From NCBI GenBank assembly GCA_947589435.1, contig CANQBI010000003.1, forward strand, positions 1-55,891: a stretch of DNA of 55,891 bases, in the 5' to 3' direction. The notes below the pieces were generated by a model. The model was not told the origin of the DNA, ran no database searches, and worked only from the letters and a program-made list of their open reading frames with translations. Source of the DNA: an uncultured Bacilli bacterium (GTDB lineage: Bacteria; Bacillota_I; Bacilli_A; RF39; UBA660). The translations under genes and the position numbers were made by a program. Positions 246 to 55,375 of this stretch are shown piece by piece (positions within the stretch are counted from its first letter, which is position 1; every line of letters begins with the position of its first letter).

Positions 246-1421
246 TTAACTAACTATCCTATCCGATATTATAAATGGATTACTTTCTGTTCCTTCTCCT
301 GATATGCTTATCTCGGATATTAGATAAAAGACTGGACGAACAGCATCCACACTGCCACCGAAAGGTAAGGAAGTAGTTAGACTCCCTTCTGAGCGCACAA
401 AAAATACATCATCATTATCGATTCCCCTCGACATAGTCCATTCATAATCTTTGCCAGAAAAAGTAGATAAGCCATTTCTTATAAATAACCAGTTTGTTAA
501 ATTCTTATATTCATTTGGACCTGCATTTATATAATCGCTTTGATACATTAATCCTATTTTATGATTATTATTAGATAACGTTTGCTTTTCCTCTGAACTA
601 CCATCCCTCGCCGTAGATCCGCCTACATACCATTTTGGATTACTTATAATACTTTTGTCACCAATAGTTACTGATGCACCTGTCAAAAAAGTTGATTCTA
701 AATATTCAAGTACTTTTGATCCCTCCCAACTTGTACAAGTATAACAAGTACTCCAACCTTGATTATCATTACTTGACGTTGCTTTGATTATCTTTAATTG
801 ATCTTTTACGAGTCCTAAATTTGTATTTACATTTTCTGTTGTTATTCCTATTATTCTATACATGTATGTATTTTTATCAGCTAAACATATATCTTTATTT
901 TCAGTACCAAAACATATGAAGTTATTTATTTTATTACTTGTTACATCACTTTGAGTTCCTACATATCTTAAGAGTTCATCACCTTCATATGCTGTTTTTA
1001 AATATTGTTCTGATGTTGTTTGCTTCATTAATTTTAACACTGTACTTTTTCTCGCAAATTTAAGTGTACAATAGATTGTTCTGTCTGTTGAAATTGTTGC
1101 CTTATTTCCCTCTATATTAAATTGTAATATATCTGTTGTTGGTGTTATTTGATTTCCATTTACATCTTCACATTCACTTCCATAATACTCAAATATATCT
1201 TTATCAGGCCATTTTATTCTTGTGGTATCTTCATCCCACCCAAAACTATCATTTTGTACTTTTATAGCGATTTGCTTACTATCTTTTAAATTTTCTACAA
1301 TTTGAATATTTTCTAATACTTTATTATTTGAATTATTTAATTCTTTTACATAATTATATAATTCATATACTACTCCAATTGTAAATATTACTATTAATAT
1401 ATTTAATACTTTTCTATTCAT
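246..1421 (-). CDS. Membrane-anchored surface protein with a C-terminal DUF6273/C-type-lectin-like domain and a DGR-like variable end
   Basis: 391 aa. N-terminal TM helix, Cys-containing module (WP...EC.D..G...IYCTL.FA), then NNFICFG..YRIIG..KIGLMY.SDY..NWL..EWTMS..VRPVFYL..G.GT..NPF. Paralog of 29550-30665. Confidence 0.75.
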   Translation of the reverse strand: MNRKVLNILIVIFTIGVVYELYNYVKELNNSNNKVLENIQIVENLKDSKQIAIKVQNDSFGWDEDTTRIKWPDKDIFEYYGSECEDVNGNQITPTTDILQFNIEGNKATISTDRTIYCTLKFARKSTVLKLMKQTTSEQYLKTAYEGDELLRYVGTQSDVTSNKINNFICFGTENKDICLADKNTYMYRIIGITTENVNTNLGLVKDQLKIIKATSSNDNQGWSTCYTCTSWEGSKVLEYLESTFLTGASVTIGDKSIISNPKWYVGGSTARDGSSEEKQTLSNNNHKIGLMYQSDYINAGPNEYKNLTNWLFIRNGLSTFSGKDYEWTMSRGIDNDDVFFVRSEGSLTTSLPFGGSVDAVRPVFYLISEISISGEGTESNPFIISDRIVS

Positions 1422-1432
1422 TTTTAATTCTC

Positions 1433-2971
1433 CTAACTCACCTTATCAAAGTATGCATAACAAGTATTCTTACCAGTTGTTGTATATGTAAATCCTTTTG
1501 TTTCATCATATATTATATCTGTTGTAACATTATCTAAATTATCACATTCATAACTAGACATTGTATATCCTTTAGGTATTCTTCCATCTGCAATATATGT
1601 TTTATTATTTTTTATTGTAACTATACTTCCTGTTTCTGATTCTATATAAGTTGTTATTCTTATATCTCCATCTTTTATTTCATATGGTGTTAAATTAAAA
1701 CTATAGTATATTCTGCACACCACTTGATAGGGTTTATCTTCCGAAACATTTATTGTTACTCTTCCATCATCATTTATATAATAATCCGGGTAATTAACTG
1801 TACTACTTTCTTTAGGTATACAATTACTTTTACTTTTATCAAGTTTATAATTATTTTTAACATCTAATGGTGGGATATTATATAAAATATATTGACCGAG
1901 ATTAAAATGGTCTTCAATATAATACATTACATTTATGTCTGAAGTTTTACTTATGCTTGATGTGTCTCCAGTTGTAGAACTAGGTCTTTTGTATAATGCT
2001 GTTTTTTCGATTATAAAGGGATTCTCTTCTGTACCACTTCCGTTTATCTTCACATTACTTCTTAAATACATTACAGGTCTTATTAAATATTTATTGGTAA
2101 CAGACGTATAACTTACATTACCAGATGACGATATATACCAAGAATAATTAATATTATATCTTGACATTGTCCATTCATTACCACTTGAATCACTTGGATA
2201 ATTAGTGTCATTATTGCTTATATGTAACCAATTACCAGTTTTACAACTACTTCCAGAATAACAATTGGCATCATTTCCCATTGCTAAATAATAATCACTT
2301 AAATACATTAAACTAACCTTAGAATTAACGACATTTTCTCCCCAATTTTTCTTTTCATTTTCTAACAAAGTTGTTCCAGTATATGATGAAATACTAATTA
2401 AGTCGCCATAATCATATGCATAATCGGCAATTCCAATCAGCCAATTATTATCTTGTAAATAAGAGTAATCGCTACTTTTTAGAAAATAACTTTTTTTTAA
2501 TCCAATATATAGAGAAGAATTATTCCAAGTTACATCAGATGAACGATTCCAAGAATATGATATATCTAATGCCTCTTTTTTAATTATTTTTAATTCTTGG
2601 GTTTTTGTATCTATTCCTATTATACGATACATATATTTATCTTGATTTTCTATACACTCATTCTTATCTTTTGTTCCAAAACAAATATAATTATTTACGC
2701 TACTTCCTTGGTATCTTCTTAACCTATCATTTCTTACTTGCATATTTTCTCGTGTTTCTAAACCACTATTTTCTTGTGATTCCAAATATTCTTCTATGTC
2801 TTGTGTAGAAAAATTTCCTACTTTGGAAGTAAATATAGGTACTGGTTCCATCTCATAATTATAATAAGCATGAGTATTTCTTAAACAAATAAATAAGACC
2901 ATAACAAAAAAACATATTATTAGATATATTACTTTTATATTTAAGAATTTTTTTAATCTTTCCTTTATCAT
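1433..2971 (-). CDS. Secreted surface protein: SipW-like signal (THA-YYNYE), DUF6273-like domain, C-terminal Cys module
   Basis: 512 aa, RBS AAGAGG. N-terminal block shared with 30681-31500 and 53199-55260; C-terminal module shared with 30681-31289 (NC.P..QVVCR.YY..NTCY.YF). Confidence 0.75.
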   Translation of the reverse strand: MIKERLKKFLNIKVIYLIICFFVMVLFICLRNTHAYYNYEMEPVPIFTSKVGNFSTQDIEEYLESQENSGLETRENMQVRNDRLRRYQGSSVNNYICFGTKDKNECIENQDKYMYRIIGIDTKTQELKIIKKEALDISYSWNRSSDVTWNNSSLYIGLKKSYFLKSSDYSYLQDNNWLIGIADYAYDYGDLISISSYTGTTLLENEKKNWGENVVNSKVSLMYLSDYYLAMGNDANCYSGSSCKTGNWLHISNNDTNYPSDSSGNEWTMSRYNINYSWYISSSGNVSYTSVTNKYLIRPVMYLRSNVKINGSGTEENPFIIEKTALYKRPSSTTGDTSSISKTSDINVMYYIEDHFNLGQYILYNIPPLDVKNNYKLDKSKSNCIPKESSTVNYPDYYINDDGRVTINVSEDKPYQVVCRIYYSFNLTPYEIKDGDIRITTYIESETGSIVTIKNNKTYIADGRIPKGYTMSSYECDNLDNVTTDIIYDETKGFTYTTTGKNTCYAYFDKVS

Positions 2972-4274: not shown

Positions 4275-4298
4275 TCTTTCCTCCTATCTTTTTTGTTC

Positions 4299-4329
4299 AA
4301 CTTGAGGTCGAAATTTTCGACATCAAGTT
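4299..4329. repeat. 31-bp palindrome AACTTGAGGTCGAAA-T-TTTCGACATCAAGTT
   Basis: 15-bp arms with 1 mismatch, just upstream of the ORF6N RBS. Confidence 0.88.
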
Positions 4330-4518
4330 TAAAAATTAATAACTTAATAAAATATAAGCATTAATATCTAGAACTTATTTTTAATTGTTACTGATATATC
4401 AAGTATATTACACGAACTAATATTTGTCAATAACTTTTTGTAACATTTTTGTGAATAACAACTTATTTGCCTTTTATGGTCACAAATTGGAACCGCAATT
4501 TATCATATTAACTTTTTT

Positions 4519-4541: not shown

Positions 4542-4592
4542 GAAATTATGAAATGTTTTAATTATCTATAAAATTGTATTTATTTAATTTCC

Positions 4593-4623
4593 AACTTGAG
4601 GTTTCAAATTGAAACCTCAAGTT
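4593..4623. repeat. Perfect 31-bp palindrome AACTTGAGGTTTCAA-A-TTGAAACCTCAAGTT
   Basis: 15-bp perfect arms; identical to 4782-4812 except for the central base. Confidence 0.92.
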
Positions 4624-4781
4624 TTGTTTTTTAATTTAAAATTGTTTATTTTAGTCAAAAAATTTCTCAAAATTTCACATTAAATATTTATTAAAATTGC
4701 CCGCAAAGTCCCATTTCACCTTATAAATCATGTTTTATATTTTTTTTATTATCTGTTACAAATTAAAATTTAGAATTCATT

Positions 4782-4812
4782 AACTTGAGGTTTCAATTTG
4801 AAACCTCAAGTT
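4782..4812. repeat. Perfect 31-bp palindrome AACTTGAGGTTTCAA-T-TTGAAACCTCAAGTT
   Basis: 15-bp perfect arms. Confidence 0.92.
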
Positions 4813-4833
4813 TTATTTTTCATCTTAATTTAT

Positions 4834-9976: not shown

Positions 9977-11023
9977 TTAGACATTTTTTGACGGAACACT
10001 TATTTTTTCAGTAGCAACTCTTTTTTTCGGAAACCGAAATAGACAGTAAAAAATAGCACTTATTATAACTAAGAAATAGAAATTAAAACATCTAAGCATA
10101 AGCATACCAGACAGGGCAAGAGTACTTCCATAAAGAATCTCATTAACGACTAAAGTTAAACCTTCATTAACCATAACACCTCCCGGTGTAGGCATTAAAT
10201 CACTACCAAAGCAGACACAAACTTGGAAAGCCATTACGACAAAGACAGAATGTTCATTTAAACCAAAGGCTCTATAAACGGTGTAACTCGCAAGTAAGAA
10301 TAAAATTCTTTGCGCAATCATTAAAAGAAGAGACTCTACTAAAATCATTTTATTCTCTTTAGTTAAAGAAGCACACTTTTGATAATTTAATAAAGCATCA
10401 GCCAATTTTTCTTTTAATTCTTCTTTATTTTTTATAAATTTAATATGATCAATAAGAAAATTCGCTATTTTTAAAAACAAATTACTCATTTTCTTAGAAT
10501 AAATGGCTCCCGCAAAAAAGAAAGATACAAAGATAGCCGTTCCATAGCCTAAACATACTAAAACTTGATAAAAGGTATTTAAAGTTAAAACCGTACCCCC
10601 ATAGAAAATAAATAAAATAGTGGCCACGATTAATAAAGCAATTCTATTCATCATCGAATTAAATAAAACTACGACACTACTTACTTCATAAGGAACATTA
10701 TCTTTTTTCATTTCGAGCATTTGAATAGGTTGCCCTCCAATATAACTTGGCGTAATAGAGGAAAAATAAATCTCCGTAAACATAAAACCCAAAGCATCAA
10801 AAAATTTAACATTATATTTAAAATGATGTAAAATCCTTTTTAAAAAGAAACTTCCAATAAAGACATACCCTACCATACATAAAAATGTTAAAAACACAAA
10901 AAGAGAGTTAGTATTTCTAAAGGAAGCAACAAGCAAATTAAAATCACATCCTCTTAATACAAAAAAATAAGTGAGAATGACTAATGTTATAAATAAAATA
11001 CTTGATAAAACATACTTCTTCAT
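9977..11023 (-). CDS. Lysylphosphatidylglycerol synthase TM-domain (flippase-like) protein
   Basis: 348 aa multi-TM; YFSSITPSYIGGQP and PTPGG..V.E motifs. Confidence 0.85.
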   Translation of the reverse strand: MKKYVLSSILFITLVILTYFFVLRGCDFNLLVASFRNTNSLFVFLTFLCMVGYVFIGSFFLKRILHHFKYNVKFFDALGFMFTEIYFSSITPSYIGGQPIQMLEMKKDNVPYEVSSVVVLFNSMMNRIALLIVATILFIFYGGTVLTLNTFYQVLVCLGYGTAIFVSFFFAGAIYSKKMSNLFLKIANFLIDHIKFIKNKEELKEKLADALLNYQKCASLTKENKMILVESLLLMIAQRILFLLASYTVYRAFGLNEHSVFVVMAFQVCVCFGSDLMPTPGGVMVNEGLTLVVNEILYGSTLALSGMLMLRCFNFYFLVIISAIFYCLFRFPKKRVATEKISVPSKNV

Positions 11024-11108
11024 AAATATCCCTTCTTTAAGTATAACATAAAATATTTTTTAGAAAAGATATTTTAATTTTTTATTAACACACTTGTAAC
11101 ATTAAAAT

Positions 11109-11139
11109 AAAAAAAATAACTATTCTGATAAAATAGTTA
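11109..11139 (-). terminator. Intrinsic terminator
   Basis: Stem TAACTATT/AATAGTTA (11117-11124 and 11132-11139) followed by T8 on the minus strand. Confidence 0.75.
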
Positions 11140-11401
11140 CCTTAGTTTAAATAACTTCTCCGCGTAATTTAAAATTACTCTCCATAATTTTAAATATTAA
11201 CTAAATATTATCAGTATTTAGTGCAGATAGCTTATCTTTAGAGTTTTCTTTCTCTTAAAACAATTGTCTTTACTTAGCGTAGATAAGATTATTATTACAT
11301 AATTTATTTACTAATTAAATATATCTTTCACACATAGCAACATTACTACAAAACATAATAACTTCTAACTATGACTACTAAATATATTATCTTTACTAAG
11401 T
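11109..11401 (-). ncRNA. Candidate stand-alone RNA of about 290 nt, class unknown
   Basis: Bounded by a consensus sigmaA promoter and an intrinsic terminator; the only ORF I noticed is 13 codons with a weak RBS. Confidence 0.45.
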
Positions 11402-11407
11402 AATTTT

Positions 11408-11436
11408 ATTATAGTATTAATTATTTATTTTGTCAA
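11408..11436 (-). promoter_or_regulatory. Consensus sigmaA promoter TTGACA-N17-TATAAT
   Basis: Exact match: -35 at 11436-11431, -10 at 11413-11408. Confidence 0.85.
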
Positions 11437-11461
11437 TATATGCAATGAAAAAAAGAACCAA

Positions 11462-12022
11462 TTAGGCTCTTCCCGCATATTTTCCATCTTTAGTAGTAAC
11501 TAAGATTTTTTCACCTTCATTAATAAATAAAGGCACCTTTATAACTTTACCAGTTTCAAGTTTTGCATCTTTTTGGGCATTAGTAGCGGTATTTCCTTTA
11601 ACAGCTTCCGTAGTTTCTACAACTTCATACTCAATTTTTTCTGGTAAAGTAATCCCAATTATTTCACCTTCATAGAAATCGATAGAAATATCAATACCTT
11701 CTTTAATAAAATCGGCATCGTCTCCTAAAATCTTTTTAGGTACTTCGATTTGTTCATAAGTTTCATTATTCATAAATACTAAGTCATCACCACTAGCATA
11801 TAAATATTGAACTTTACTTTTATCGATATGCGCTCTCGTTATTTTAATGTTGGTATTAAATGTTTGTTCCACAATCGAACCAGTTCTTAAATTTTTTAAT
11901 TTAATTCTAACAAAAGCAGGGCCTTTACCTGGTTTTACATGTTGGAATTCTTGAATTAAACATAAGTTACCATCAATAATAACAGTCATACCGTTTTTGA
12001 TATCATTAATATTAATGTTCAT
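11462..12022 (-). CDS. efp: Elongation factor P
   Basis: 186 aa; FQHVKPGKGPAFVR.K.KNL.TG and KGNTAT...K.A.LETG motifs. Confidence 0.98.
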   Translation of the reverse strand: MNININDIKNGMTVIIDGNLCLIQEFQHVKPGKGPAFVRIKLKNLRTGSIVEQTFNTNIKITRAHIDKSKVQYLYASGDDLVFMNNETYEQIEVPKKILGDDADFIKEGIDISIDFYEGEIIGITLPEKIEYEVVETTEAVKGNTATNAQKDAKLETGKVIKVPLFINEGEKILVTTKDGKYAGRA

Positions 12023-12249: not shown

Positions 12250-14187
12250 TTACTCTTTTTCAAATAGAAAGTTCATAATACTTTGCGAAATATAGCGAGT
12301 TATATATACTTTACTATAATTATATTCTTTTAAAACATAAATATTGGGGGCTAAAACTACGACACTATACTTGGGATTATCATAAGGAGCAAAACCCACA
12401 AAGGCGATGGAAGTTGTTTTGGTATCCATCACACCATCGTTGTTCGTATCGATAAATGTTTCACTTGTTCCCGTTTTACCGGCCGGATTATATTCACTTT
12501 TAATATAACTTCTGGCTGTCCCACTAGTGGTAGCTAAATGCATGGCCTCTTTTAATCTTTCTAAATAAACATTATCTAGACTAACATTATTTAAAACGGT
12601 ATAATCATTTTGGAAAATAGTAGTATTTTCATTTTTAATTTCTTTCATAAGTTGCGGTTTTCTTCTTACTCCACTACTGGCAATGGTATTAACATATTGA
12701 AATAATTCCATTGGGGTATACGTGTCATATTGGCCAATACTTAAATTAAGAAGCAAATCACTCGAGGTTAAAGCCCCTTTAATACCTGTTTTTTCGTTAG
12801 GTAAATCTATTCCCGTTAGATTTCCTAAACCATATTCTTTATACATATCCCGGAATTTATTAAAATCATTTTCACTTGTATTTAAAGTCATATTATATTT
12901 ATATTCTTGATTAGTAAGACCTATCGCTATTTTAAATTGGTAATAATTACTACTTTTACTTATCGCCGTTAAATCATTTACTTTACCTAAATTTTTATAA
13001 CTACATTTAATCGGTACTTGATAGAGTTTAATACACCCATCTTGCACACTGGTTCCAATATCAATAACGCCATATTTATAACCCGTGCTAATCGTTGCCA
13101 TTTTAACAACACTTCCCACGGTAAAAGAAGAATTAATTAAATTAGTATTCACACTTTTAAAAGTTTCATCTTCTAAAGAGATTAACTTTTGCCCACTTAA
13201 AGCAATAATTTCGCCCGTATTAGGGTCTCCCACAATACTATAACTTTCACTAAAATAATCGGTATTCTTTCTTTTTTTACCCAAAATAATATTTTCTCTT
13301 AAAATACTTTCTAATTTAAGTTCAACATCGATATCAATCGATAAGACTAAATCATTACCATTCTTAGCTTCTTTTATTACTTTTAATGTATTATCGCTAT
13401 TAACTTCGTATAATTCTTTTTCCCCTTTTAAATAATCTTCATATTCTTTTTCTAAATAACTTAAACCGACTATATCATTTAAATTATACCCTTTTTTTAA
13501 ATATTCTTCTTTTTCTTCTTCGGGAATTCTGCCAATGGACCCAAATAAGTCTTTTAGGGTATCTCCATAATTATAAACTCTTTCCCAAGTAAGTTCCGTA
13601 CTTACCCCTTCAATATTTTTATCTACTAAAGTACTATATTCTAAGTCACTAATATTTTTGGAAATTATCTTTTTTGCATAAGAATAACCTTTGTTCATTA
13701 AATCATAAATAGTCGCGGTCTTCTTCTCTATTTCCTCTAAATTATTAATATCTTCCTCTTTAACTCTTTCTAATTTTAAATTTTCAATATCTTTACTGGT
13801 AATTTTGCGCATCTTTAACTTTTCGTACTCTTCTTCAGTTATTAAATCATCCCCATTATTATGCGTAAGTAACCAATATTTCTTTAAGACATTTTCATTA
13901 ATGGATATATTGATAATTTCTGCGAGTTCCCTTGCTATTTCTAATTCTTTTTGGACAGTTACACCCTTTAATTTGGTATAAAATAAAGTTTTAACTCCCA
14001 TGTTATCCACTAAAACTTTACCATTCCTATCTAAAATTCTTCCTCTTGGAGCACTTTCCCCATAAACATAATTTATCGTTTTATTTTCCAATTTTTTTAA
14101 ACTTTCTTCATGATTATTTAAATTTAAATAAACCATTCTTCCTAAAAGGATTAAAAAGATAATTGTTATTCCTAAATATTTTTTCAT
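12250..14187 (-). CDS. Class B penicillin-binding protein (transpeptidase)
   Basis: APRGRILDRNG dimerisation domain; GSVVK (SxxK), SSN and GKTGT motifs. Probable start is MKKYLG at 14187; the track start is 14217. Confidence 0.92.
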   Translation of the reverse strand: MKKYLGITIIFLILLGRMVYLNLNNHEESLKKLENKTINYVYGESAPRGRILDRNGKVLVDNMGVKTLFYTKLKGVTVQKELEIARELAEIINISINENVLKKYWLLTHNNGDDLITEEEYEKLKMRKITSKDIENLKLERVKEEDINNLEEIEKKTATIYDLMNKGYSYAKKIISKNISDLEYSTLVDKNIEGVSTELTWERVYNYGDTLKDLFGSIGRIPEEEKEEYLKKGYNLNDIVGLSYLEKEYEDYLKGEKELYEVNSDNTLKVIKEAKNGNDLVLSIDIDVELKLESILRENIILGKKRKNTDYFSESYSIVGDPNTGEIIALSGQKLISLEDETFKSVNTNLINSSFTVGSVVKMATISTGYKYGVIDIGTSVQDGCIKLYQVPIKCSYKNLGKVNDLTAISKSSNYYQFKIAIGLTNQEYKYNMTLNTSENDFNKFRDMYKEYGLGNLTGIDLPNEKTGIKGALTSSDLLLNLSIGQYDTYTPMELFQYVNTIASSGVRRKPQLMKEIKNENTTIFQNDYTVLNNVSLDNVYLERLKEAMHLATTSGTARSYIKSEYNPAGKTGTSETFIDTNNDGVMDTKTTSIAFVGFAPYDNPKYSVVVLAPNIYVLKEYNYSKVYITRYISQSIMNFLFEKE

Positions 14188-14271
14188 AAAATCCACCATT
14201 ATTAGTATGGTAAACAAGATATAATGTATTCATTTTTAAATAAATACATAAAATATAACAGGTGAATAATT

Positions 14272-14532
14272 ATGTTTAATATAATAGAAAGATATATAAG
14301 TAAAATAACTAAAGAAGATGTTAATAATTTTGCTATTTCTAAAAATATTACTTTATCGGAAAGTGAACTGGACTTTACTTATGAATTTTTAAAAAAGAAT
14401 GCTCTAGAGGCTTTAAAGAATCCTCGTCTTTTTGATATAAATCGTTATCAAAATCATTACACAAAAGAAAACTTTAACAAAATCGTTAAAGTTTATGAAG
14501 AATATAGTTCCCTTTACAGTCGTTATTTATAA
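14272..14532 (+). CDS. DUF2624/YqfT-like protein
   Basis: 86 aa, I..IT.ED...FA....I.L...E. Convergent with nfo, as yqfT-nfo(yqfS) is in Bacillus. Confidence 0.6.
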   Translation: MFNIIERYISKITKEDVNNFAISKNITLSESELDFTYEFLKKNALEALKNPRLFDINRYQNHYTKENFNKIVKVYEEYSSLYSRYL

Positions 14533-15425
14533 TATTCTCGGACTTCTTCAATTAAATTAGGATTAAACTCTCCCTTTTTAATCATTGCAATTTCTTGTTT
14601 ATAAGGAGGATAAACTAATTCTTTTTCATTATCATTTTTACTTATATAAGGTGTTTCTAAAATTTTAGGAACATCTTTTAATTTTTCATTATTTATTATT
14701 TTGATTAAATTATCAAAACCAATAGTCCCATACCCAATGTTAGCATGACGATCTTTATGCGTTCCTCTTTCATTTTTACTATCATTTACATGAATACATT
14801 TTATTTTATCTAAGGGAATTATTTTCGCAAAACTATCTAAAAATAAATCAAAGTTACTCATATCATATCCGGCATCATTTAAATGGCAAGTATCAAGACA
14901 AACACCAATATTGGAAGATTTAACGCCATCTAAAATGGTTTTAACTTCTTCAATCGTTTTTCCACATTCACTACCTTTTCCTGCCATCGTTTCTAAAATA
15001 ATCATACATTTATCATCATCACTAATAATGTAATTTAAAGCCTCAATTATATTGTTTATACCCTTTTCAGTGGTATATTTAACACTACTTCCCGGATGTA
15101 AAACAATATATTTAATTCCTAATTCTTCACATCTTCTAATTTCATTTTTTAAAAAACTAATCGAAAAATTCCAAGCATCTTCTTTTTCTTTATTGGCTAA
15201 ATTAACAATATAAGGAGCATGACAAATCACATTATCCATACTAATATTATTTTCTTGCATTAATTTTTTGGCCTCACTCGTTAAATTACTATCTATTTTA
15301 CTTCTAAAAGTATTTTGGGGAGCTCCGGTATATAACATAAAGGCATTGGCTCCATAACTTAAAGCCTCTTTTAAACTTCCTAATATTTGGGTGCTTCCAA
15401 ATCTTACATGACTACCTATTATCAC
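14523..15425 (-). CDS. nfo: Endonuclease IV
   Basis: IGSHV, HAPYIVNL, VLHPGS, LETMAGKGSECG, CLDTCH, H.NDSK, DRHANIG.G.IG motifs. Confidence 0.97.
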   Translation of the reverse strand: MIIGSHVRFGSTQILGSLKEALSYGANAFMLYTGAPQNTFRSKIDSNLTSEAKKLMQENNISMDNVICHAPYIVNLANKEKEDAWNFSISFLKNEIRRCEELGIKYIVLHPGSSVKYTTEKGINNIIEALNYIISDDDKCMIILETMAGKGSECGKTIEEVKTILDGVKSSNIGVCLDTCHLNDAGYDMSNFDLFLDSFAKIIPLDKIKCIHVNDSKNERGTHKDRHANIGYGTIGFDNLIKIINNEKLKDVPKILETPYISKNDNEKELVYPPYKQEIAMIKKGEFNPNLIEEVREYYK

Positions 15426-27557: not shown

Positions 27558-28616
27558 ATGAAAAAAACTATCTTTATTTACTTTATTCTTATTATCCTTC
27601 TTATTATTTTTCATCTTTTTTATTATTCTCTCTTAATTAAATTTATTATTCCTCTTTTATCCCTTATATATCTTATTTATAATTATCTTAATTATAAAAA
27701 TATTATGACTTTTAAAAATAAATATTATCTTCCTCTTATTATTCTAATTTCTTTATTATTTTTAAACTTTTATTTCGAAATTGGTCTTTTTTATGGGTAT
27801 ACTCTTAATCCTTTAAAGCATCTTTTAACTAACATCATAGATAGTATTATCCCTCTTATTAGTATCGAATTATTAAGACATAATCTAATAAAGAATCAAA
27901 AGAACAAGCCCTTTATTATTACTCTTTTAATTATTTTTTTAGAACTTAACTATCATACTCTTTTCACTCTTAATCTAAAAAGAGATTTATATACTTATTT
28001 TTGTTCCGAAGTTATTCCTTTAATCTTATCCAACTTTCTTTTTACTTATTTAACTATTCATTTTCATTATACATATTCCATTATTTTAAATATATTAGAT
28101 AAATTAATTATTTATTTTGTTCCGTTTCTTCCAAAGACTAATTGGTACTTAATTGGCACCAGTAGTCTAATTAAAATAAGCTTATGCTTTATAATATTCC
28201 AATATATTTTCAATAAAAAACATAAAGTTAATATCTTTCCATCTTTTCTTACCATCATAATGGTAATATTACTCACTCTTTTTACTTTAGGTATGTTTAA
28301 GTATGAAGCTATTGTTATTCTTTCTAATAGTATGTATCCCACACTTGAAAAGGGAGATATAGTAATTTATGACAAAGATATTCAAAATGTCCATGAAAAA
28401 GACATAATTGTTTTTGAAACTAAAGATAAAACTATTATCCACCGCGTAGTTAAAAAAATTAATAATTCTTATTTAACTAAAGGTGATAATAACAATGTCA
28501 TTGATAATTATAAAGTAGATAAAAAAGACATTAAAGGTGTCTACAAATTTTCCTTAAAATACTTAGGAGTTCCAGCAGTTTATTTAGAAGAATTTTTAAA
28601 TAAAGGAGGGACATAA
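27558..28616 (+). CDS. Signal peptidase I, SipW/S26B type, with a long polytopic N-terminal region
   Basis: C-terminal SNSMYPTL..GDIV...IIHRV...TKGDNN...D motifs (Ser-His type); about 230 aa of upstream TM helices. Confidence 0.85.
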   Translation: MKKTIFIYFILIILLIIFHLFYYSLLIKFIIPLLSLIYLIYNYLNYKNIMTFKNKYYLPLIILISLLFLNFYFEIGLFYGYTLNPLKHLLTNIIDSIIPLISIELLRHNLIKNQKNKPFIITLLIIFLELNYHTLFTLNLKRDLYTYFCSEVIPLILSNFLFTYLTIHFHYTYSIILNILDKLIIYFVPFLPKTNWYLIGTSSLIKISLCFIIFQYIFNKKHKVNIFPSFLTIIMVILLTLFTLGMFKYEAIVILSNSMYPTLEKGDIVIYDKDIQNVHEKDIIVFETKDKTIIHRVVKKINNSYLTKGDNNNVIDNYKVDKKDIKGVYKFSLKYLGVPAVYLEEFLNKGGT

Positions 28617-28618
28617 CT

Positions 28619-29482
28619 TTGAAAAAAACTTTATTATTTACGATTTTTTCTTTTATTTTAATTATCATCGGTTTAGTAATTCTTATTCTTGCATTCTTTA
28701 AACCAAACAATCTTCATAATTTAGATATTCAAAATAAATCTTCTTATGAAGTTACATATAATGATAATAATTATTTTTCTAATAATATTATTCCCGAAAA
28801 CAATTATTATATTACTTCTTTAATTAAAGATATTAATATTAATTATGATATTTTAATTAATAACTTAAAACAAAATAACTATACTTATAAAATAAATATT
28901 AAATTACAATCTAATTATGAAAATAATCCAATCTTTGAAAAAGAATATCCCCTAAAAAATAATAATTTAACAAACAATATTAATGAACAAATAGTTATTG
29001 ATTATAATTATTATTTAAATTATATTAATAATTTTGAAAGTAATCTTAATCTTAAAACAGACTCTTCTCTTTTAATAGAACTAAACATAATAGATAATGA
29101 TACTACTCTAAATTATCTTAATATTACTATTCCTTTAAAAGAAAAAGTTATCTTTATCGAAGAAAATGATAATTTTAACAAACAAGAAAGTAATAATTTT
29201 AATCATAATTATTTTACTATTTCCATAATTCTTATTACTTCCGGTATTTTTATTAATCTTTATTTTAATAAAAGTAATAACTTTAAAAGAATTATCAAAG
29301 AATATAAAAGTTTAATTATTAAAATACTAGATAATCCTAATATAAATAATTATGAAGTTATTAATATAACCTCAATTGAAGATTTAATTAAAATATCTTT
29401 ATCTAATGATTTAAATATTTTAAATTATAATAATAAATATTTTATAATTAAAGAAAATATTATGTATTTATATACTAAATAA
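28619..29482 (+). CDS. DUF5305-like membrane protein
   Basis: Two TM helices flanking an extracellular domain; cytoplasmic tail RIIKEYKSLIIK...SIEDLIKIS..L...IL. The family name is from memory of SipW gene clusters. Confidence 0.55.
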   Translation: MKKTLLFTIFSFILIIIGLVILILAFFKPNNLHNLDIQNKSSYEVTYNDNNYFSNNIIPENNYYITSLIKDININYDILINNLKQNNYTYKINIKLQSNYENNPIFEKEYPLKNNNLTNNINEQIVIDYNYYLNYINNFESNLNLKTDSSLLIELNIIDNDTTLNYLNITIPLKEKVIFIEENDNFNKQESNNFNHNYFTISIILITSGIFINLYFNKSNNFKRIIKEYKSLIIKILDNPNINNYEVINITSIEDLIKISLSNDLNILNYNNKYFIIKENIMYLYTK

Positions 29483-29549: not shown

Positions 29550-30665
29550 TTATGCATTATTCTTAGTTGTGATAATGTATGGATGGTCTTTTGTTCCTTC
29601 TCCTGTTAAGTTTACCCCGGATTGTAGATAGAAGACTGGGCGAATCCATTCTCCGTAGTACTCCCACATTGTAAAACGTCCTCCATCATCAATCAACCAA
29701 CTATATTGACTTTCAGTCACAGACATAGTGAGTTCGTAATAATGAAAATCATCATATTTTTGATATAACCAATTACTAGTATCTTGACTCCCAGAATTTT
29801 TATAATCTGTATAATACATTAAGCCTATTTTAAAATCAGAGGAAAAATTTGTTTTTAATTCTGATGATACATCACTATCATGTGGTGTAACGTACCATTT
29901 ATGATTACTTATAATTGATTCCCAATAATTACCATTATTTTGATTAAGAATAGAATTTATAAATGTTGTATTTAGTTCTGTTTTGCACGGTGAAGTTTCA
30001 AATTGTTTAGACATATAACAATTATATGAAGATATTATTTCAGTTTTAATAATTTTTATTTGATCTTTTTTTAATCCAACTAAATCATCATTTGCACTTG
30101 TTATTCCTATTATCCTATACATATAGGTATTTGGCGTTCCTGTGCATGTGCTTTCTACTGTTGTTCCAAAACATATATAGTTATTTAATACTTGTGTATT
30201 TGTTCCTTTAAATCTATACATTCCATCTACGGCACTTGTACTGTTAAAGGTACCTCCACCTTTCTTTGTTAAATGGTCTAATGCTGGTTCTCCTTTAGCA
30301 AAGTACAGAGTACAATATATACTATTTTTTGTATCTATTGTGGCATGATAAGTTGATAAATCAAAATGCAGTATATTTGTATAATCTATTTCTTTTCCAT
30401 CACTATCTGTACATTCTGCTCCAACAAAACCATGAGTTGTTGGACTTGGCCATGTATCTCTATTATCAGATTCATGCCATTCTTCTCCTTCATTATCTTG
30501 TACCCATATGGCTATTGATTTATCATTACTTAATGTATTATTAGTTTGTATTTTTTCTATCTTATTTGGTTTGATATTTAAAGTTCTTATGATGTTATAA
30601 CTTTCTCCTAATATTAAAACTCCTACTATAATTATGATTATTGTTAATATTTTATCTTTCTTCAT
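29550..30665 (-). CDS. Membrane-anchored surface protein with a C-terminal DUF6273/CLec-like domain and a DGR-like variable end
   Basis: 371 aa; same architecture as 246-1421. Confidence 0.75.
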   Translation of the reverse strand: MKKDKILTIIIIIVGVLILGESYNIIRTLNIKPNKIEKIQTNNTLSNDKSIAIWVQDNEGEEWHESDNRDTWPSPTTHGFVGAECTDSDGKEIDYTNILHFDLSTYHATIDTKNSIYCTLYFAKGEPALDHLTKKGGGTFNSTSAVDGMYRFKGTNTQVLNNYICFGTTVESTCTGTPNTYMYRIIGITSANDDLVGLKKDQIKIIKTEIISSYNCYMSKQFETSPCKTELNTTFINSILNQNNGNYWESIISNHKWYVTPHDSDVSSELKTNFSSDFKIGLMYYTDYKNSGSQDTSNWLYQKYDDFHYYELTMSVTESQYSWLIDDGGRFTMWEYYGEWIRPVFYLQSGVNLTGEGTKDHPYIITTKNNA

Positions 30666-30680
30666 TTTATTTTCTCCCTT

Positions 30681-31500
30681 CTATTTACTAAAGTATCCAT
30701 AACAAGTATTTGGTCCAGTTGTATCTATATGAAAGCCATTAGTATCATGAGTAAATGTTGTACTTGCTTTTTTACTTTTACACTCATACGTTATCATAGA
30801 ATAACCATCAGGAACTTGATTATATAATTTATATGTTTTATCATTATATTTTCTATCTCCTGTACTATCTTCTATATAAGCATAAATAATAACATCGGAT
30901 AATTTATCTCTGTCATAATAAAGTCGACATACTACTTGTGTTGGTTTAGTTTCTTCTGTATATTCTATATGGACAGTTCCATCTTCTTTTATAGTGTAAT
31001 TTTCATAAGTTGCATCTCCACCTTCTGCTGGATAACAATTTGATTTATCCCCATTTATTTGATATCCACTGGCGGGTACATATTTACTCTCTTTATATTT
31101 ATCAGCATTATCAGGCATTTGGGTATAAAAGATTATATTTACATCGGTATTCTTATCTATTGGACCTTGTTTAACACTTTCTCCTTCTCCAGCAAAGTTT
31201 CCAACTTTACTTGTAAATATAGGTACTGGTTCCATTTCATAATTATAATAAGCATGAGTTTTATTAATTGCTACATTTATTAATAACAATACAAAAAATA
31301 CTAATACGAATATTCCTAATATTAGTTCTTTATGTTTTAATTTTTCTTTTATATTATTAAGTTTATCTTTTAAATTATTAAATGGTATGAATACTAAAGA
31401 TATTAGGGTATTACAATAACCCCCCCCCGATTTGGGAAATTAGAACTACTAATATAGTTAATCCTACATATAGTACTAAATTTTTATTCTCTTTCTTCAT
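30681..31500 (-). CDS. Secreted surface protein frameshifted at a G9 tract (272 aa if G8)
   Basis: ATG at 31500 with RBS GAGG reads MKKENKNLVLYVGLTILVVLISQIGGGLL* (stop 31413-31411). Removing one G joins it without stops to the track ORF 30681-31289. Confidence 0.75.
31420..31428 (-). repeat. G9 homopolymer (slippage site)
   Basis: Nine C on the plus strand in AT-rich sequence; same context as 55156-55164. Confidence 0.9.
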
Positions 31501-31668: not shown

Positions 31669-32544
31669 CTAGCCTTTTATTTCTTTAACAAAGACTGGTT
31701 GTCTTAAATTATTACTTTTAGTTCTTTCTATATATTTAACTTCACATTTTAATTTTAGATTAATAATATTTTCATCATTTTCTTTTTTAATTATTTTTTC
31801 TTTTTTTATTTTTTTATATAAAGGACTCTTCTTGGCTATATTTACTTTACCAACTAAAGGATGTTTAGTGGTATTATCTCCTAGTAATAAAGTTATGACA
31901 TAATTTTCTTCTTTTTCTATATAACCAATAATATAAAAAGTTTCGTACTTATAATTTTTAATTTTTAGCCAATAATCACATCTCGTATTTATTAAATAAG
32001 GACTTGTTTTTAGTTTGGCAATAATACCTTCTAAATTTTCTTTTTTTACCATTTTATATAAATCCTTACCATGTTCATCAATATATTTAGTTTTGATAAA
32101 GACATCACTATCTTTATATTTTTCTAAATATTTTTTTCTTTCCTCTAAAGGAAGTTTAGTTAAATCTTTATCTTCATATAAAATATCAAAGGCCATAAAA
32201 GTAATGGGATTGTTTAGTGAAGCCTCTTTTATTTTAGTTTTATTTTTTAAATGAGTTCTTTCTTGTAATTTGGAAAATGATGGTTTACCATTTTGAAAAC
32301 TTACAATCTCGCCATCAAAGATAACTTTATTTTTGACTATCTTTTTTAAACTTTCTAATTCGGGATACAAATAAGTTATATCTATTAAATTACGACTTTT
32401 GATAATTACTTCTTTAGGACTTACAAAAATTAGAGAACGATAACCATCAAATTTTATTTCAAAAAGATAATCTTTGGAATTAAAAGGTTTGGGTATTTCT
32501 CTTAATAACATAGGCCCCCAATTTTTATTTTGCCATATATTCAT
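31669..32544 (-). CDS. ATP-dependent DNA ligase (LigD ligase domain only)
   Basis: FEIKFDGYR, IFDGEI, AFDILY, EGIIAK..S.Y....R...W.KIK, LRQPVF; no polymerase or PE domain. Confidence 0.9.
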   Translation of the reverse strand: MNIWQNKNWGPMLLREIPKPFNSKDYLFEIKFDGYRSLIFVSPKEVIIKSRNLIDITYLYPELESLKKIVKNKVIFDGEIVSFQNGKPSFSKLQERTHLKNKTKIKEASLNNPITFMAFDILYEDKDLTKLPLEERKKYLEKYKDSDVFIKTKYIDEHGKDLYKMVKKENLEGIIAKLKTSPYLINTRCDYWLKIKNYKYETFYIIGYIEKEENYVITLLLGDNTTKHPLVGKVNIAKKSPLYKKIKKEKIIKKENDENIINLKLKCEVKYIERTKSNNLRQPVFVKEIKG

Positions 32545-33290
32545 TTTTTCTTTTTCAAACTCTTTTCTAAGGCTTCCATTAAATCATTAATTTGAATTTT
32601 ATCTTTTTTAGTCGTACCTTTAATACTTTTACCATTTAGTTTAGCCTCAATGGCTTTTCTAATATTATTTTGATATTCATCTTCATACTTTTGGGGTTCA
32701 AATTTACCACTTAAATCGTTGATTAACTTAATGGCTAAATCCAGTTCTTTTTCTTTTACTTCACCCGTTTTATTTTCATCGGGAGTCATTACTTCTTCTT
32801 CAAAAAACAAGGTAGTCATCACTATTCCAAAGGGTGCAAATCTTAAAATACAATAGTAGAATTTACTGCCAATAACTGTTTTGGCTAAAGCTACTTTTTT
32901 CACCTTTTTTAAAGCCTCACAAAACAAATCATAAGCTTTACTTGTCCCATTATATTTTAAAATATAACTTTTTTCAAAATAGATAGGATCAATATCTTTC
33001 ACATCAATAAAAGAAACAATTTCAATTTCTTTTTCTTGTTCGGGTTTTAATTTATCAAGTTCACTTTTATCAAAAGTTAAATATTTATCATTTTCATATT
33101 CATAACCTTTAATAATATCTTTATCTTTTACTTCTTCCTTACAATGCGGACAATATTTAACATAGTTAATTCTCGTTAAACATTTTTTATGAAGTTGGTT
33201 AAAAGAAGTATCATTATCTCTAATTAAAGGATTCATAATAACCGGAATATTTACTAAACCAAAAGAAATATTGCTATGAACATTAGGCAT
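32541..33290 (-). CDS. ku: Ku protein (NHEJ)
   Basis: ISFGLVNIPV, F.QLH..C..RI.Y...CP.C...V...DIIKGYEY, IDPIYFEKSY, F.P..Y.DEY. Probable start 33290; the track start is 33353. Confidence 0.95.
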   Translation of the reverse strand: MPNVHSNISFGLVNIPVIMNPLIRDNDTSFNQLHKKCLTRINYVKYCPHCKEEVKDKDIIKGYEYENDKYLTFDKSELDKLKPEQEKEIEIVSFIDVKDIDPIYFEKSYILKYNGTSKAYDLFCEALKKVKKVALAKTVIGSKFYYCILRFAPFGIVMTTLFFEEEVMTPDENKTGEVKEKELDLAIKLINDLSGKFEPQKYEDEYQNNIRKAIEAKLNGKSIKGTTKKDKIQINDLMEALEKSLKKKK

Positions 33291-33375
33291 AAACATCACC
33301 ATTTTTAGGATAATCTTTTTAAAAATTTTTATACAAAATTTAAAATTAAACATAAATTAAAAAAGGAGGAATGTT

Positions 33376-42762: not shown

Positions 42763-44247
42763 CTATTTAACTTTTCTTAAAACTTCTTCTAACTCTGCTG
42801 CTTCAATATCTTCCCCATTTTTACTTTCGGTATAAGACATTAATAAATCAACACCCGTTATTGGTTTAACTTCCTTAGAAGGAATCTTTTCTTTAATTTC
42901 AATTTTTCTTCCAATGCATACACTTAATAATCGATTAACCTCTTTAGTTAAGTAATAGATGTACATTTCTTTATCCCGATTATCTTTTTTTAAGGATTTA
43001 ATTCTTCTAAGGGCTTCTTTAAACATTTCGATAACTTCTTTTAAATTATTATCCTCGTTTAAGACCTCTCTTACTAATAAGACATCTTCTTCCGTATATT
43101 CACTACTTAAAATTCTCCCCATTGGTACAGATATTTTAAGTTGGGCTAAAAGAGAACTACTACTTATAAGTTTAACAATATCAACATCTATACCATAACA
43201 ATTATTAGCAATCGCCGCCATTTCAATATTAATTCCGTACTCAATAGCATTATTATTTAATAAAATACTACTAACAACTTTGGCTTTTTCCTTACTTTCA
43301 CTTTCGGTTAATATTTGCATGGCCGTTATATTATCTCCTTTAAAAATAAGCATTTGATAAAACAAAACTCTCTTCACCATATCAATGTCTAAATTCTTAG
43401 GGGCATCAAGTAAAATTTGCGATGCTAATACATCGATTCCCTTATTTTCAAATTGAGCTGATGTTAAAGCCCAATAAATAATTTGAGCAATTTCTTTAGT
43501 ATTACTTCTTAAAATAAGTTCTACTTTATTATCATCTATTTTTTCCTTACCTTTAATTAGATAAATTAAATAATCGTATAAGACATTTACTTTAAAATCT
43601 TCTTTAACGGAAGCAAGTATTTTAGTAGCTTTCATAACTTCATCTTTATTTTCATCGTTTAGATAATCAAATAAGAGTTTAATGCCAAATGGAGCTTTGC
43701 TATTTTGAGATGACATAATAATTTTCACATATTCTAAAACATTAGGTAATGGAAAATCTAAGAAAGATAGATAAACCTCTCTTACTTCCGATGTATTTTT
43801 ACATTTTAAAATTATTTCCGCATAAAGACTTTTATCTTTTAACTTACTCATGGCATAAATATTTTCAATATAATTTATATATTCAGCACTTGGACATCTC
43901 GTTATATAATAAGCCCCTTCTAAAGAAGTCTTTTCTTTAATAAATCTATCATCAGTTAAATGTTTACATAGATAAAAGCCATATTTGGGAGAGTCTTTAA
44001 TGATATCAATGCTTTCCATCATTTCATTTAAAATATCTAAAGTTAAATCTTTACCACTCATTTTTAAAACATATTCCGTAGCATAGGCTAAAGCATTTTT
44101 ATTTTTAACTTCCATTAAATAATTTAAAACTCTTTCATCTACTTTAAGTAATCTTTCAATATCTTTATCCGAAAAATAGATATTTGATTCACTTTCATTT
44201 ATCTTCTTAATTCTTTCTAAAAATTTCAAAAATTTATCTTTTTGCAT
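42763..44247 (-). CDS. Hypothetical helical-repeat protein (divergent paralog 3)
   Basis: 494 aa; recurring ..I(L/I)..(C/S/A).......I...L helices. Confidence 0.7.
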   Translation of the reverse strand: MQKDKFLKFLERIKKINESESNIYFSDKDIERLLKVDERVLNYLMEVKNKNALAYATEYVLKMSGKDLTLDILNEMMESIDIIKDSPKYGFYLCKHLTDDRFIKEKTSLEGAYYITRCPSAEYINYIENIYAMSKLKDKSLYAEIILKCKNTSEVREVYLSFLDFPLPNVLEYVKIIMSSQNSKAPFGIKLLFDYLNDENKDEVMKATKILASVKEDFKVNVLYDYLIYLIKGKEKIDDNKVELILRSNTKEIAQIIYWALTSAQFENKGIDVLASQILLDAPKNLDIDMVKRVLFYQMLIFKGDNITAMQILTESESKEKAKVVSSILLNNNAIEYGINIEMAAIANNCYGIDVDIVKLISSSSLLAQLKISVPMGRILSSEYTEEDVLLVREVLNEDNNLKEVIEMFKEALRRIKSLKKDNRDKEMYIYYLTKEVNRLLSVCIGRKIEIKEKIPSKEVKPITGVDLLMSYTESKNGEDIEAAELEEVLRKVK

Positions 44248-45742: not shown

Positions 45743-45752
45743 AAAACCTCCC

Positions 45753-55260: not shown

Positions 55261-55375
55261 TTTACTTCTCCTCATATGTTTTAAATACCGAATATTAATT
55301 CTATTAATAATATGGCATATAATTTTATTTTATATACCATATTATTAATGTCGCTACTTGGTATGTTACAATAAA

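Follow-up and report, generated by a model that had tools for sequence, protein, structure and literature searches.

Why should four well-separated sites in an AT-rich bacterial genome carry the same 20-base block, spelled in codons that the surrounding genes seldom use? The question arises in a 55.9-kb stretch of DNA (hereafter the window) from an uncultured Bacilli bacterium (contig CANQBI010000003.1, assembly GCA_947589435.1), in which a first-pass annotation had noticed the block near the ends of dispersed paralogous genes and had likened it to the initiation of mutagenic homing (IMH) sequence of a diversity-generating retroelement (DGR), the class of element in which a template repeat (TR) rewrites the variable repeat (VR) of a target gene by reverse transcription. 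The answer reached herein, with a probability of about 0.85, is that the block is a DGR homing signal on paralogous surface-protein domains, one copy of which looks recently rewritten while the others look like decaying former targets. Much of the evidence comes from related loci and contigs (designated by L-numbers, such as L012 and L045). A genome-collection scan returned 339 relatives, the best 80 of which all derive from seven 'uncultured Bacilli' metagenome-assembled genomes (MAGs) from rabbit gut, with up to 19 family loci sampled per MAG among these 80. Given that the housekeeping genes flanking the family in the window are 87-92% identical at the DNA level to those of two of the seven MAGs, the window organism is a congener of the rabbit-gut bacteria.

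A shared block in uncommon codons

The copies of the block, the segments adjoining them and the genes in which they lie are listed below; the open reading frames (ORFs) are designated A, B and C, and gene C holds two copies.

321-344, minus strand: IMH-type block of copy A (GCT GTT CGT CCA GTC TTT TAT CTA; RPVFYL = 321-338), exact 20-mer, three of four diagnostic codons kept
339-431, minus strand: VR-equivalent segment of copy A, 31 codons from EWTM to RPVFYL, without TR signal
246-1421, minus strand: gene A, encoding a 391-aa membrane-anchored protein with a DUF6273-like domain
1433-2971, minus strand: fifth paralog (512 aa), its end completely decayed; IRPVMYL at about 2063-2080
29625-29648, minus strand: IMH-type block of copy B, canonical CGC CCA GTC TTC TAT CTA, four of four diagnostic codons
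29643-29723, minus strand: VR-equivalent segment of copy B, 27 codons, without TR signal, its G+C at third codon positions (GC3) still reaching 0.55
29550-30665, minus strand: gene B, encoding a 371-aa paralog
53262-53285, minus strand: IMH of copy C2 (GCG GTT CGC CCA GTC TTT TAT CTA), exact 20-mer
53265-53372, minus strand: variable repeat C2, TR-homologous from AGGTATGG to TAT, with adenine-specific mismatches against the L065 TR
54120-54143, minus strand: IMH of the internal copy C1 (GCG TTT CGC CCA GTC TTC TAT CTA), exact 20-mer
54138-54236, minus strand: probable eroded variable repeat C1, 33 codons, compared with the L016 TR
53199-55275, minus strand: gene C, a two-domain paralog; the ORF at 53199-54986 encodes 595 aa, or 691 aa from 55275 if a poly-G tract upstream were G8

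The shared 20-mer, TAGATARAAGACTGGRCGAA, matches the plus strand at 321, 29625, 53262 and 54120, as first noticed, and nowhere else in the window even with two mismatches allowed; it had no match in 100 dinucleotide-preserving shuffles, and a repeat search of the window returned only the four known copies of the block and other family motifs. Read on the minus strand, every copy gives TT CGY CCA GTC TTY TAT CTA, or (x)RPVFYL, about 20-24 codons upstream of the end of a roughly 280-aa domain, of which proteins A and B have one each and protein C two in tandem (C1 upstream, C2 terminal).

Measured against the other 39 ORFs of the window, the codons of the block are indeed uncommon: CGC and CGT supply 2.7% and 10.8% of Arg codons, GTC 9.8% of Val, CTA 7.5% of Leu and TTC 12% of Phe, in opposition to the preferences of the genome (AGA 73%, GTT/GTA, TTT 88%, TTA 70%). 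The fifth paralog, absent from the earlier list, spells its IRPVMYL as AGA CCT GTA ATG TAT TTA, in common codons throughout. The uncommon spelling recurs beyond the window. In 74 copies drawn from a comparison set of 92 unique domain copies (from the window and the seven MAGs), Arg is encoded by CGY in 68 and by AGA in none, and GTC, TTC and either CTA or CTT are found in 58, 57 and 61, respectively.

The G+C contents first reported for the adjoining stretches were reproduced (A 53.6, B 46.4, C2 63.8 and C1 47.8%, against 27.7% for the window), the C2 stretch (53251-53389) holding the richest 69 nt of the window. In 20-codon windows, GC3 peaks at 0.70 for C2, 0.55 for B, 0.45 for C1 and 0.35 for A, the background being 0.176 +/- 0.089 (highest value 0.50), and the excess of G+C is located at synonymous sites. 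Over the 30 codons upstream of the motif, third-position A (A3) stands at 12%, compared with 44% in the remainder of the same genes, while third-position T is unchanged (39% vs 37%) and C and G are raised; this loss of A3 is a strand- and base-specific signature, more than plain GC enrichment. Within the window, A occupies 1 of 30 third positions in C2 and 6 of 30 in copy A, about 13 being expected in the latter.

The segment of copy A had been described as two codons longer than the copies at 53-54 kb. This comparison does not hold, as counting from EWTM/ELTM to RPVFYL gives 31 codons for A, 27 for B, 33 for C1 and 32 for C2; the lengths of the variable segments do, nevertheless, differ among the four.

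Template repeats and cassettes in related genomes

What gives the block its meaning is its recurrence in non-coding repeats of related genomes. A set of 11 TR units was assembled (one each at L012, L016, L064 and L065, two each at L041 and L095, and four at L045). The 5′ part of a unit has a conserved GGTAATCTTGATAT after a TATAAT box; the TR that follows is 105-111 nt long, starts with AGGTATGG, contains 31-37% A and is rich in AAC/AAT codons; after it comes TAGGGAAGATAGAAGACAAAGATTAT, which is 100% conserved in ten MAG-derived units and carries two to three substitutions in the two units of L095, and the 3′ end of the unit is a hairpin with a T-run. The lengths of the TRs vary by whole codons and a cassette has one to four units, which bears out the earlier supposition that more than one template was needed.

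In all 11 units the TR ends in GCGGTTCGYCCAG[C/A]CTTCTAT[A/G]AC, whereas the 3′ ends of about 45 VRs, the four window copies included, read GCGGTTCGYCCAGTCTTCTATCTW (CCAGTCTTCTATCTN; GCGGTTCGYCCAGTCTTCTATCTN). The two ends have GCGGTTCGYCCAG and CTTCTAT in common, the TR showing C/A in place of T and [A/G]AC in place of CTN, so that a fixed difference separates GTC..CTW in the VR from G[C/A]C..[A/G]AC in the TR. The relation of an IMH to a non-identical counterpart in the TR (IMH*) has been described for DGRs (PMC5758913). The likening of the 20-base block to an IMH is thereby sustained: in related genomes the block marks the 3′ end of TR-VR homology, a non-identical IMH* stands in the TR, and the 20-mer first noticed spans most of the IMH. 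The first 18 nt of the C2 IMH equal the sequence common to the TRs and VRs of related loci, GCGGTTCGCCCAG.CTT. In the cis pair of L045, mismatches between the VR and a TR of the same locus fall on 18 of 37 adenines and on 3 of 68 other positions, one of these three being the IMH/IMH* position.

A non-coding copy had also been expected beside an RT of the DGR clade and an avd gene, and the cassettes of related genomes contain such an RT with an Avd-like gene. A regular-expression search for RT motifs matched GNMTSQ...Y[V/I]RYMDD in L012, L041 and L045, with a family member lying a few kb upstream in each. The order in L012 is a target (10001-11209), a TR (about 11395-11505), a PD-(D/E)XK transposase-like gene, a remnant unit lacking a TR, a 93-aa ORF, an Avd-like ORF (13521-13907) and the RT (13891-15015), and this type of arrangement recurs in L041, L045, L095 and L084-L102. 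The L012 RT matches Pfam RVT_1 (E 4e-18), has the motifs IGNMTSQ...YVRYMDD and, among PDB sequences, is closest to the 328-aa RT of entries 8ub7-8ube (E 1e-22), the bRT of the Bordetella phage, with group II intron RTs following at 4e-9. The Avd-like ORF of the sister loci is 105-128 aa long, overlaps the start of the RT and matches bAvd at E 2e-6 (28.5 bits, below the 40-bit cut-off); precomputed bAvd matches in L084-L102 are likewise weak, and a comparison of the Avd-like protein with PDB sequences gave no match. The sister-genome system has the defining parts of a DGR, with a putative Avd as accessory protein. Since its RT/Avd block adjoins HIGH_NTase1-miaA-transglutaminase-rpsT-spoIIP on contigs from several studies, the element is chromosomal and vertically kept.

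Some TR units stand apart from an RT. Those of L064 and L065 are orphans beside remote targets, and in L064 no RT occurs within the 10 kb examined around the TR and its target. About 16 related targets, most of them live-like in the sense defined below, have a conserved GC-rich inverted repeat, ATCGCCCAAGGCGGC (ATCGCCCAAGGCGGCA..TGGCGCCTAGGCGAT), directly behind the stop codon; they are those of L012 (11190-11240), L016, L041, L045, L095 and some 11 further loci. This repeat may correspond to the cruciform element of other DGRs, about a third of which have a GC-rich inverted repeat downstream of the IMH (PMC5758913).

Further observations concern the layout of the cassettes. Arrays of TR units occupy L045 2968-7000 (four), L041 11371-12850 (two) and L012 11373-13024 (one and the TR-less remnant), the units being interleaved with PD-(D/E)XK transposase-like (PDDEXK_2) genes and each having its own TATAAT box and terminator hairpin; a literature search on DGRs with multiple TRs yielded nothing usable. 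An ORF of 95-101 aa always overlaps the RT stop in L084-L102 and L012. At L098 5-260 and L102 797-1050, beside an RT 97% identical to that of L012, lies a TR-like unit poorer in adenines, in which some codons resemble those of VRs (TCC, GAC TGG) and the IMH* has lost one nucleotide (CGCCAG). Degeneration or back-conversion of a template may account for this unit. As it matched C2 no better (14 of 83 non-adenine mismatches plus gaps), it was left out of the TR set.

Adenine-specific mismatches and the decay of targets

Are the window copies themselves products of such templates? Each copy was compared with the TR set, with the IMH left out and codon shuffles as control; the TR references for the window copies come from other (sister) species. 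For C2 (best match L065), mismatches fall on 23 of 37 adenines and 6 of 50 other bases (z = 7.7, Fisher p = 1e-6). For C1 the signal against the L016 TR is weak, with 21 of 32 adenines and 20 of 52 other bases (z = 4.3, p = 0.014); the alignment is ungapped, TR-specific strings (CCG...GGCAACTTG) are common to C1 and this TR, and the non-adenine changes are mostly G/C to A/T. The predicted concentration of mismatches at TR adenines was thus found clearly in C2 and weakly in C1, and not in A (z = 0.9) or B (z = -0.6). A and B score the same as codon shuffles, need gaps and have only their IMH codons left (3/4 and 4/4 diagnostic), while in the fifth paralog the IMH codons are gone as well as any TR-like body. 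C2 is a genuine VR, although the TR references come from other species, and C1 is read as a VR in which rewriting has ceased and AT-biased erosion has set in; the segment of copy A looks like either a relic VR or the target of an unseen TR.

The window copies fall along a gradient that runs through the whole family. The 92 domain copies were classed by their distance to the best TR (A3 background about 13/30):

Live-like, 19 copies: mismatch 54% at A sites and 13% at others; IMH codons 3.79/4; A3 0.6/30
Intermediate, 25 copies: mismatch 63% at A sites and 28% at others; IMH codons 3.76/4; A3 2.2/30
No TR signal, 48 copies: mismatch 58% at A sites and 44% at others; IMH codons 2.75/4; A3 5.5/30

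The farther a copy lies from the best TR, the less canonical are its IMH codons (Spearman -0.60, p = 2e-10) and the more A3 it has (+0.81). The gradient supports a process of birth and death, in which homing maintains both the IMH codons and a GC-rich, A3-poor body, and both decay after homing stops. A four-way DNA alignment of the window copies (indels, 65% identity) had excluded a DGR with a single TR, a result later traced to multiple TRs and decay rather than to the absence of a DGR.

Proposed mechanism and competing explanations

The mechanism that would account for these observations is as follows. A chromosomal RT and an Avd-like protein would copy short TR RNAs, each transcribed from a separate unit in which a -10-like box precedes an AAY-rich TR (105-111 nt) with its IMH*, and a conserved spacer and a terminator hairpin follow. 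Adenines of the TR would be misread in reverse transcription, and the cDNA would replace the last roughly 30 codons of IMH-bearing targets, including genes remote from the cassette. In the window, C2 would have been written recently and C1 earlier, the latter now eroding under AT-biased mutation; A and B would be older former targets, or targets of an unseen TR, with their IMH codons kept; and the paralog at 1433-2971 would have lost all DGR features. Because of the state of C2 and the intact cassettes in congeners, this genome presumably still has an RT and TR, and homing presumably continues at present. The earlier proposal that one DGR outside the window diversifies several surface proteins in trans survives in part, namely for C2 as a VR and for C1 as TR-derived but eroded, and finds no TR signal to rest on in A and B.

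Several results weigh against this account. No TR-derived body was detected in A (mismatches at 19 of 30 adenines and 24 of 50 other bases, p = 0.14) or in B (17 of 32 and 24 of 49, p = 0.45) in comparison with the TR set. C2 keeps its 6 of 50 non-adenine mismatches to the best TR, which is from another species. Gene C, with both VRs and a G9 tract, shows 0 mismatches over 5195 nt in a second assembly (L105), and no population variation was seen, protein A being identical on three other ENA contigs; these are low-coverage assembly consensus sequences. The GC-rich inverted repeat is absent after A, B, C1 and C2. Lastly, the window holds no RT, Avd or TR by RT regular expression, by Pfam search of 47 of its 48 ORFs of at least 100 aa or by search for TR flank motifs. 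RT homologs P0121, P0122, P0123, P0126 and P0138 were traced to contigs, none of which comes from the three samples containing the window strain (ERZ27249413, ERZ27059787 and ERZ27249407). Most contigs with RT homologs end at or inside a TR unit, and L090 begins in the post-TR hairpin.

Foremost among the alternatives, albeit unlikely, is that only fossil targets are present, the genome having lost its DGR and the four blocks being neutrally decaying remnants. The want of an RT or TR in the window is what this would predict, as are the graded loss of TR similarity in C1, A and B, the mostly GC-to-AT character of the non-adenine changes in C1, the sameness of the VRs between assemblies and the OFF state of both phase switches described below; moreover, two of the seven MAGs (033_45 and 015_74) lack a live-like copy among the loci sampled. 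Loss of the system sits poorly, however, with the intact cassettes of sister species that are 87-92% identical at the DNA level and with C2, whose non-adenine mismatch to a foreign TR (12%) is close to the 4-10% of cis pairs with an intact cassette and which has A at only 1 of 30 third positions.

Far less probable is that the block serves as a recombination anchor, with paralog tips exchanged by RecA-dependent gene conversion in the manner of cassette-type antigenic variation. The family does comprise many dispersed paralogs with conserved flanks around a hypervariable segment, and recA lies in the window; variable bodies are, however, not common between paralogs, the differences track TR adenines rather than mosaic blocks, and the sole extra copies of the segment are the AAY-rich non-coding TRs beside an RT.

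Scarcely tenable is a constraint on protein alone, under which RPVFYL would be kept invariant as a structural strand, its DNA being without a function of its own. [AS]VRPVFYL is certainly near invariant among 120 listed homologs of 30-55% identity, but conservation of the peptide is insufficient because, at such protein identity, synonymous sites should randomise toward AGA/GTT/TTT/TTA, and selection on protein cannot fix rare synonymous codons in 74 copies (AGA 0/74). The nearby motif EWTM(T/S)R shows free synonymous variation, the same DNA is present in non-coding TR units, and codon canonicality drops along with TR similarity. The faintest prospect of all is a cluster of rare codons kept for reasons of translation or mRNA (pausing before the last strands, or avoidance of a T-run after a GC-rich stretch), which would suit the grouping of rare codons at one place and the avoidance of the run GTTTTTTATTTA by GTC TTC TAT CTA but does not account for the mismatch pattern at adenines, for the TR copies outside coding sequence, for the fixed differences between VR and TR or for the loss of codons in copies without TR signal.

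Protein family and fold

On which proteins would the homing signal act? A search with protein A gave more than 260 homologs (E <= 0.001); of the 120 listed, none bears a name, and RPVFYL occurs 106 times across these 120. The motifs of the family alignment are NNYICFG, YMYRIIGI, QLKIIKA, KIGLMYASDY, NSWL, EWTMTR, AVRPVFYL and GxGTExxPFII, the interval between EWTMTR and AVRPVFYL being variable in sequence and length. In the Pfam search for DUF6273 (PF19789), protein C fell short of the threshold (15.4 vs 23.5 bits, E 0.017, residues 498-575) and proteins A and B gave no match; about a dozen of the homologs listed have precomputed PF19789 matches. A model of the C2 domain (predicted local distance difference test score 92.6, alignment of 86 homologs) found its best matches in the viral library BFVD among DUF6273 proteins and receptor-binding proteins (E down to 6e-7), whereas its top PDB matches, the C-terminal domain of Legionella Lcl (DUF1566) and C-type lectins, were non-significant (E >= 0.49). 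As the Pfam score is below threshold while the homologs' PF19789 matches and the fold agree, the family is regarded as a divergent relative of DUF6273.

The C2 model and the viral DUF6273 matches also uphold the first-pass placement of the variable segment in the last strands of a C-type-lectin-like fold, and the block sits within the codons of the invariant RPVFYL strand of this DUF6273/C-type-lectin-like domain. The C-terminus of DUF6273 is a published site of DGR VRs, in phages, and its fold has been called C-type-lectin-like (PMC11792537, PMC10743442). The family proteins would be ligand-binding surface proteins. With regard to export, the N-terminus of the fifth paralog has a signal-like motif, THAYYNYEMEPVPIF, and a conserved motif, THA[YF]YNYEMEPVPIFTSKVGNF, follows a hydrophobic helix at 1433-2971, 30681-31289 and 54986-55060 (minus strand). 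Motif and helix together would form a candidate signal peptide of the SipW type (TasA/camelysin class). The N-terminal part of gene B is 87% identical in DNA to L019.

Poly-G tracts in the target operons

A second kind of variation may be superimposed on the first, in features of the window that accompany genes B and C:

30681-31500, minus strand: first gene of the B operon, with a SipW-type signal-like motif and a roughly 200-aa domain, broken by G9
31420-31428, minus strand (C9 on plus): poly-G tract G9 in OFF frame, 5′ coding region, B operon
55156-55164, minus strand (C9 on plus): poly-G tract G9 in OFF frame, 5′ coding region, gene C
27558-29482, plus strand: S26/SipW-like signal peptidase gene (27558-28616) and DUF5305 gene (28619-29482), adjoining B

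Tracts of G9 are rare for a genome of 27.7% GC. With G9, the ORF of the C operon ends after 42 codons and that of the operon upstream of B after 29, whereas G8 or G11 would restore ORFs of 691 aa (C) and 272 aa (B operon). In about 1 Mb of related loci, G8-G11 tracts number 26; without exception they share the strand of the family gene, they occupy the same 5′ position, and their lengths differ between paralogs and species. By its position and frame, the tract looks like a conserved slipped-strand ON/OFF switch on DGR-target operons. The signal peptidase and the DUF5305 protein are possible processing partners of B.

A broader picture of the lineage can be drawn only tentatively, at somewhat less than even odds: a single RT-Avd pair, inherited vertically, would act with as many as four TR RNAs, each transcribed independently, and with orphan TR units to rewrite many dispersed DUF6273 genes per genome, each operon being gated ON or OFF by poly-G, and genes no longer rewritten would decay in the body of the VR first and in the IMH codons later.

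Relation to known systems

Parts of this picture are already published: DGRs are known that reach remote targets (PMC5758913), that act in trans or include degenerate loci (PMC10907252) and that have DUF6273 domains as targets. Less ordinary are the tandem and orphan TR units, the many paralogous targets, the decay series and the coupling to poly-G, and these aspects are based mainly on related loci. Like the mtd-avd-TR-brt system of Bordetella phage BPP-1, the system here combines an RT bearing an [I/L]GxxxSQ motif with a putative Avd-type accessory protein, TRs and VRs that differ at TR adenines, an IMH with a GC-rich start and a non-identical IMH*, and a VR in the last strands of a C-type-lectin-like fold (PMC5758913). 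Unlike the phage-borne system, it is chromosomal, with dispersed targets and one to four TRs per cassette; its TR units stand before the accessory genes as small independent units, each with a -10-like box and a terminator to itself; and about 22 codons follow the IMH, the GC-rich inverted repeat standing after the stop codon and only in some targets. Internal VRs, in which the IMH must also fit the coding sequence, have been described as well (Wu et al., 2018, PMC5758913).

Among cellular systems, Treponema denticola TvpA and other DGRs with remote targets are comparable in that a single cellular DGR acts on several paralogous genes for surface proteins at a distance from the RT (Wu et al., 2018, PMC5758913). 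The published maximum is seven non-adjacent targets (PMC5758913), compared with target domains of DUF6273 type here, numbering 3-5 live-like and 1-8 intermediate copies per MAG among the best 80 of the 339 family loci, in families of at least 12-19 sampled loci per genome. Thiohalocapsa PB-PSB1 likewise has complete and degenerate loci, diversification in trans by a remote RT and TR, and transposase-like genes inside the loci, and differs in its nine RT-bearing or degenerate loci, 15 targets and NACHT conflict systems (PMC10907252); each MAG here has one cassette type at a conserved site (HIGH_NTase1, miaA), orphan TR units and adhesin-like targets. The DUF6273 targets of Faecalibacterium prophages and the 'tentaclins' resemble the present family in domain type and in having the VR at the C-terminal end (PMC11792537, PMC10743442), but those are phage receptor-binding proteins with a cis DGR, whereas the proteins here belong to cells, are anchored in the membrane, have expanded hugely in number and in most cases have no DGR in cis.

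For the poly-G tracts the parallel lies elsewhere. Homopolymeric contingency loci are represented by the poly-G switches of Campylobacter, Neisseria and Haemophilus. As in these, tracts of G8-G11 in the 5′ coding region set the frame, with lengths that differ between paralogs and species; what sets the present case apart is that the operons under the presumed switch also encode proteins with variable tips of DGR type.

The analysis indicates that a DGR target can be recognized from raw sequence without an RT or TR in view, three signs (a block of rare codons, a local loss of third-position A and a spike in GC3) being sufficient in an AT-rich genome, and it gives a role to a large protein family from uncultured gut Bacilli that had no annotation and has more than 260 database homologs. 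If the lineage-wide picture is true, these genomes provide a natural series of live, eroding and dead VRs in which the upkeep of the IMH by homing and its loss can be studied, show how arrays of TRs let one RT serve targets of different lengths, and show hypermutation combined with phase variation. Together, these would amount to a two-layer system of surface variation with an unusually large target repertoire and a readable record of the birth and death of DGR targets.

Other features of the window

The remainder of the window has ordinary chromosomal gene content, including gyrAB, efp, PBP, nusG, ffh, ftsY, RNases J and Y, recA, Ku and ligase, cysS, gltX, tex and U32 peptidases. Genes for a Ku protein and a protein with an ATP-dependent DNA ligase domain are adjacent at 31669-33353 (minus strand), directly upstream of the B operon, which suggests a bacterial non-homologous end-joining pair. 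An Rfam PGK RNA motif at 11201-11294 (minus strand) scores 82.9 bits against a gathering threshold of 50.8 and sits between efp and a gene of the LPG_synthase_TM family, not before a phosphoglycerate kinase gene. At 42763-47204 (minus strand) are three tandem paralogous ORFs (494, 502 and 483 aa) with 71-77% DNA identity across long stretches and no Pfam match. Finally, a near-perfect palindrome of roughly 31 nt, AACTTGAGGTTTCAAATTGAAACCTCAAGTT, occurs three times (4289-4330, 4583-4624 and 4772-4813) in the intergenic region between an ORF6N-domain gene and ylbD.

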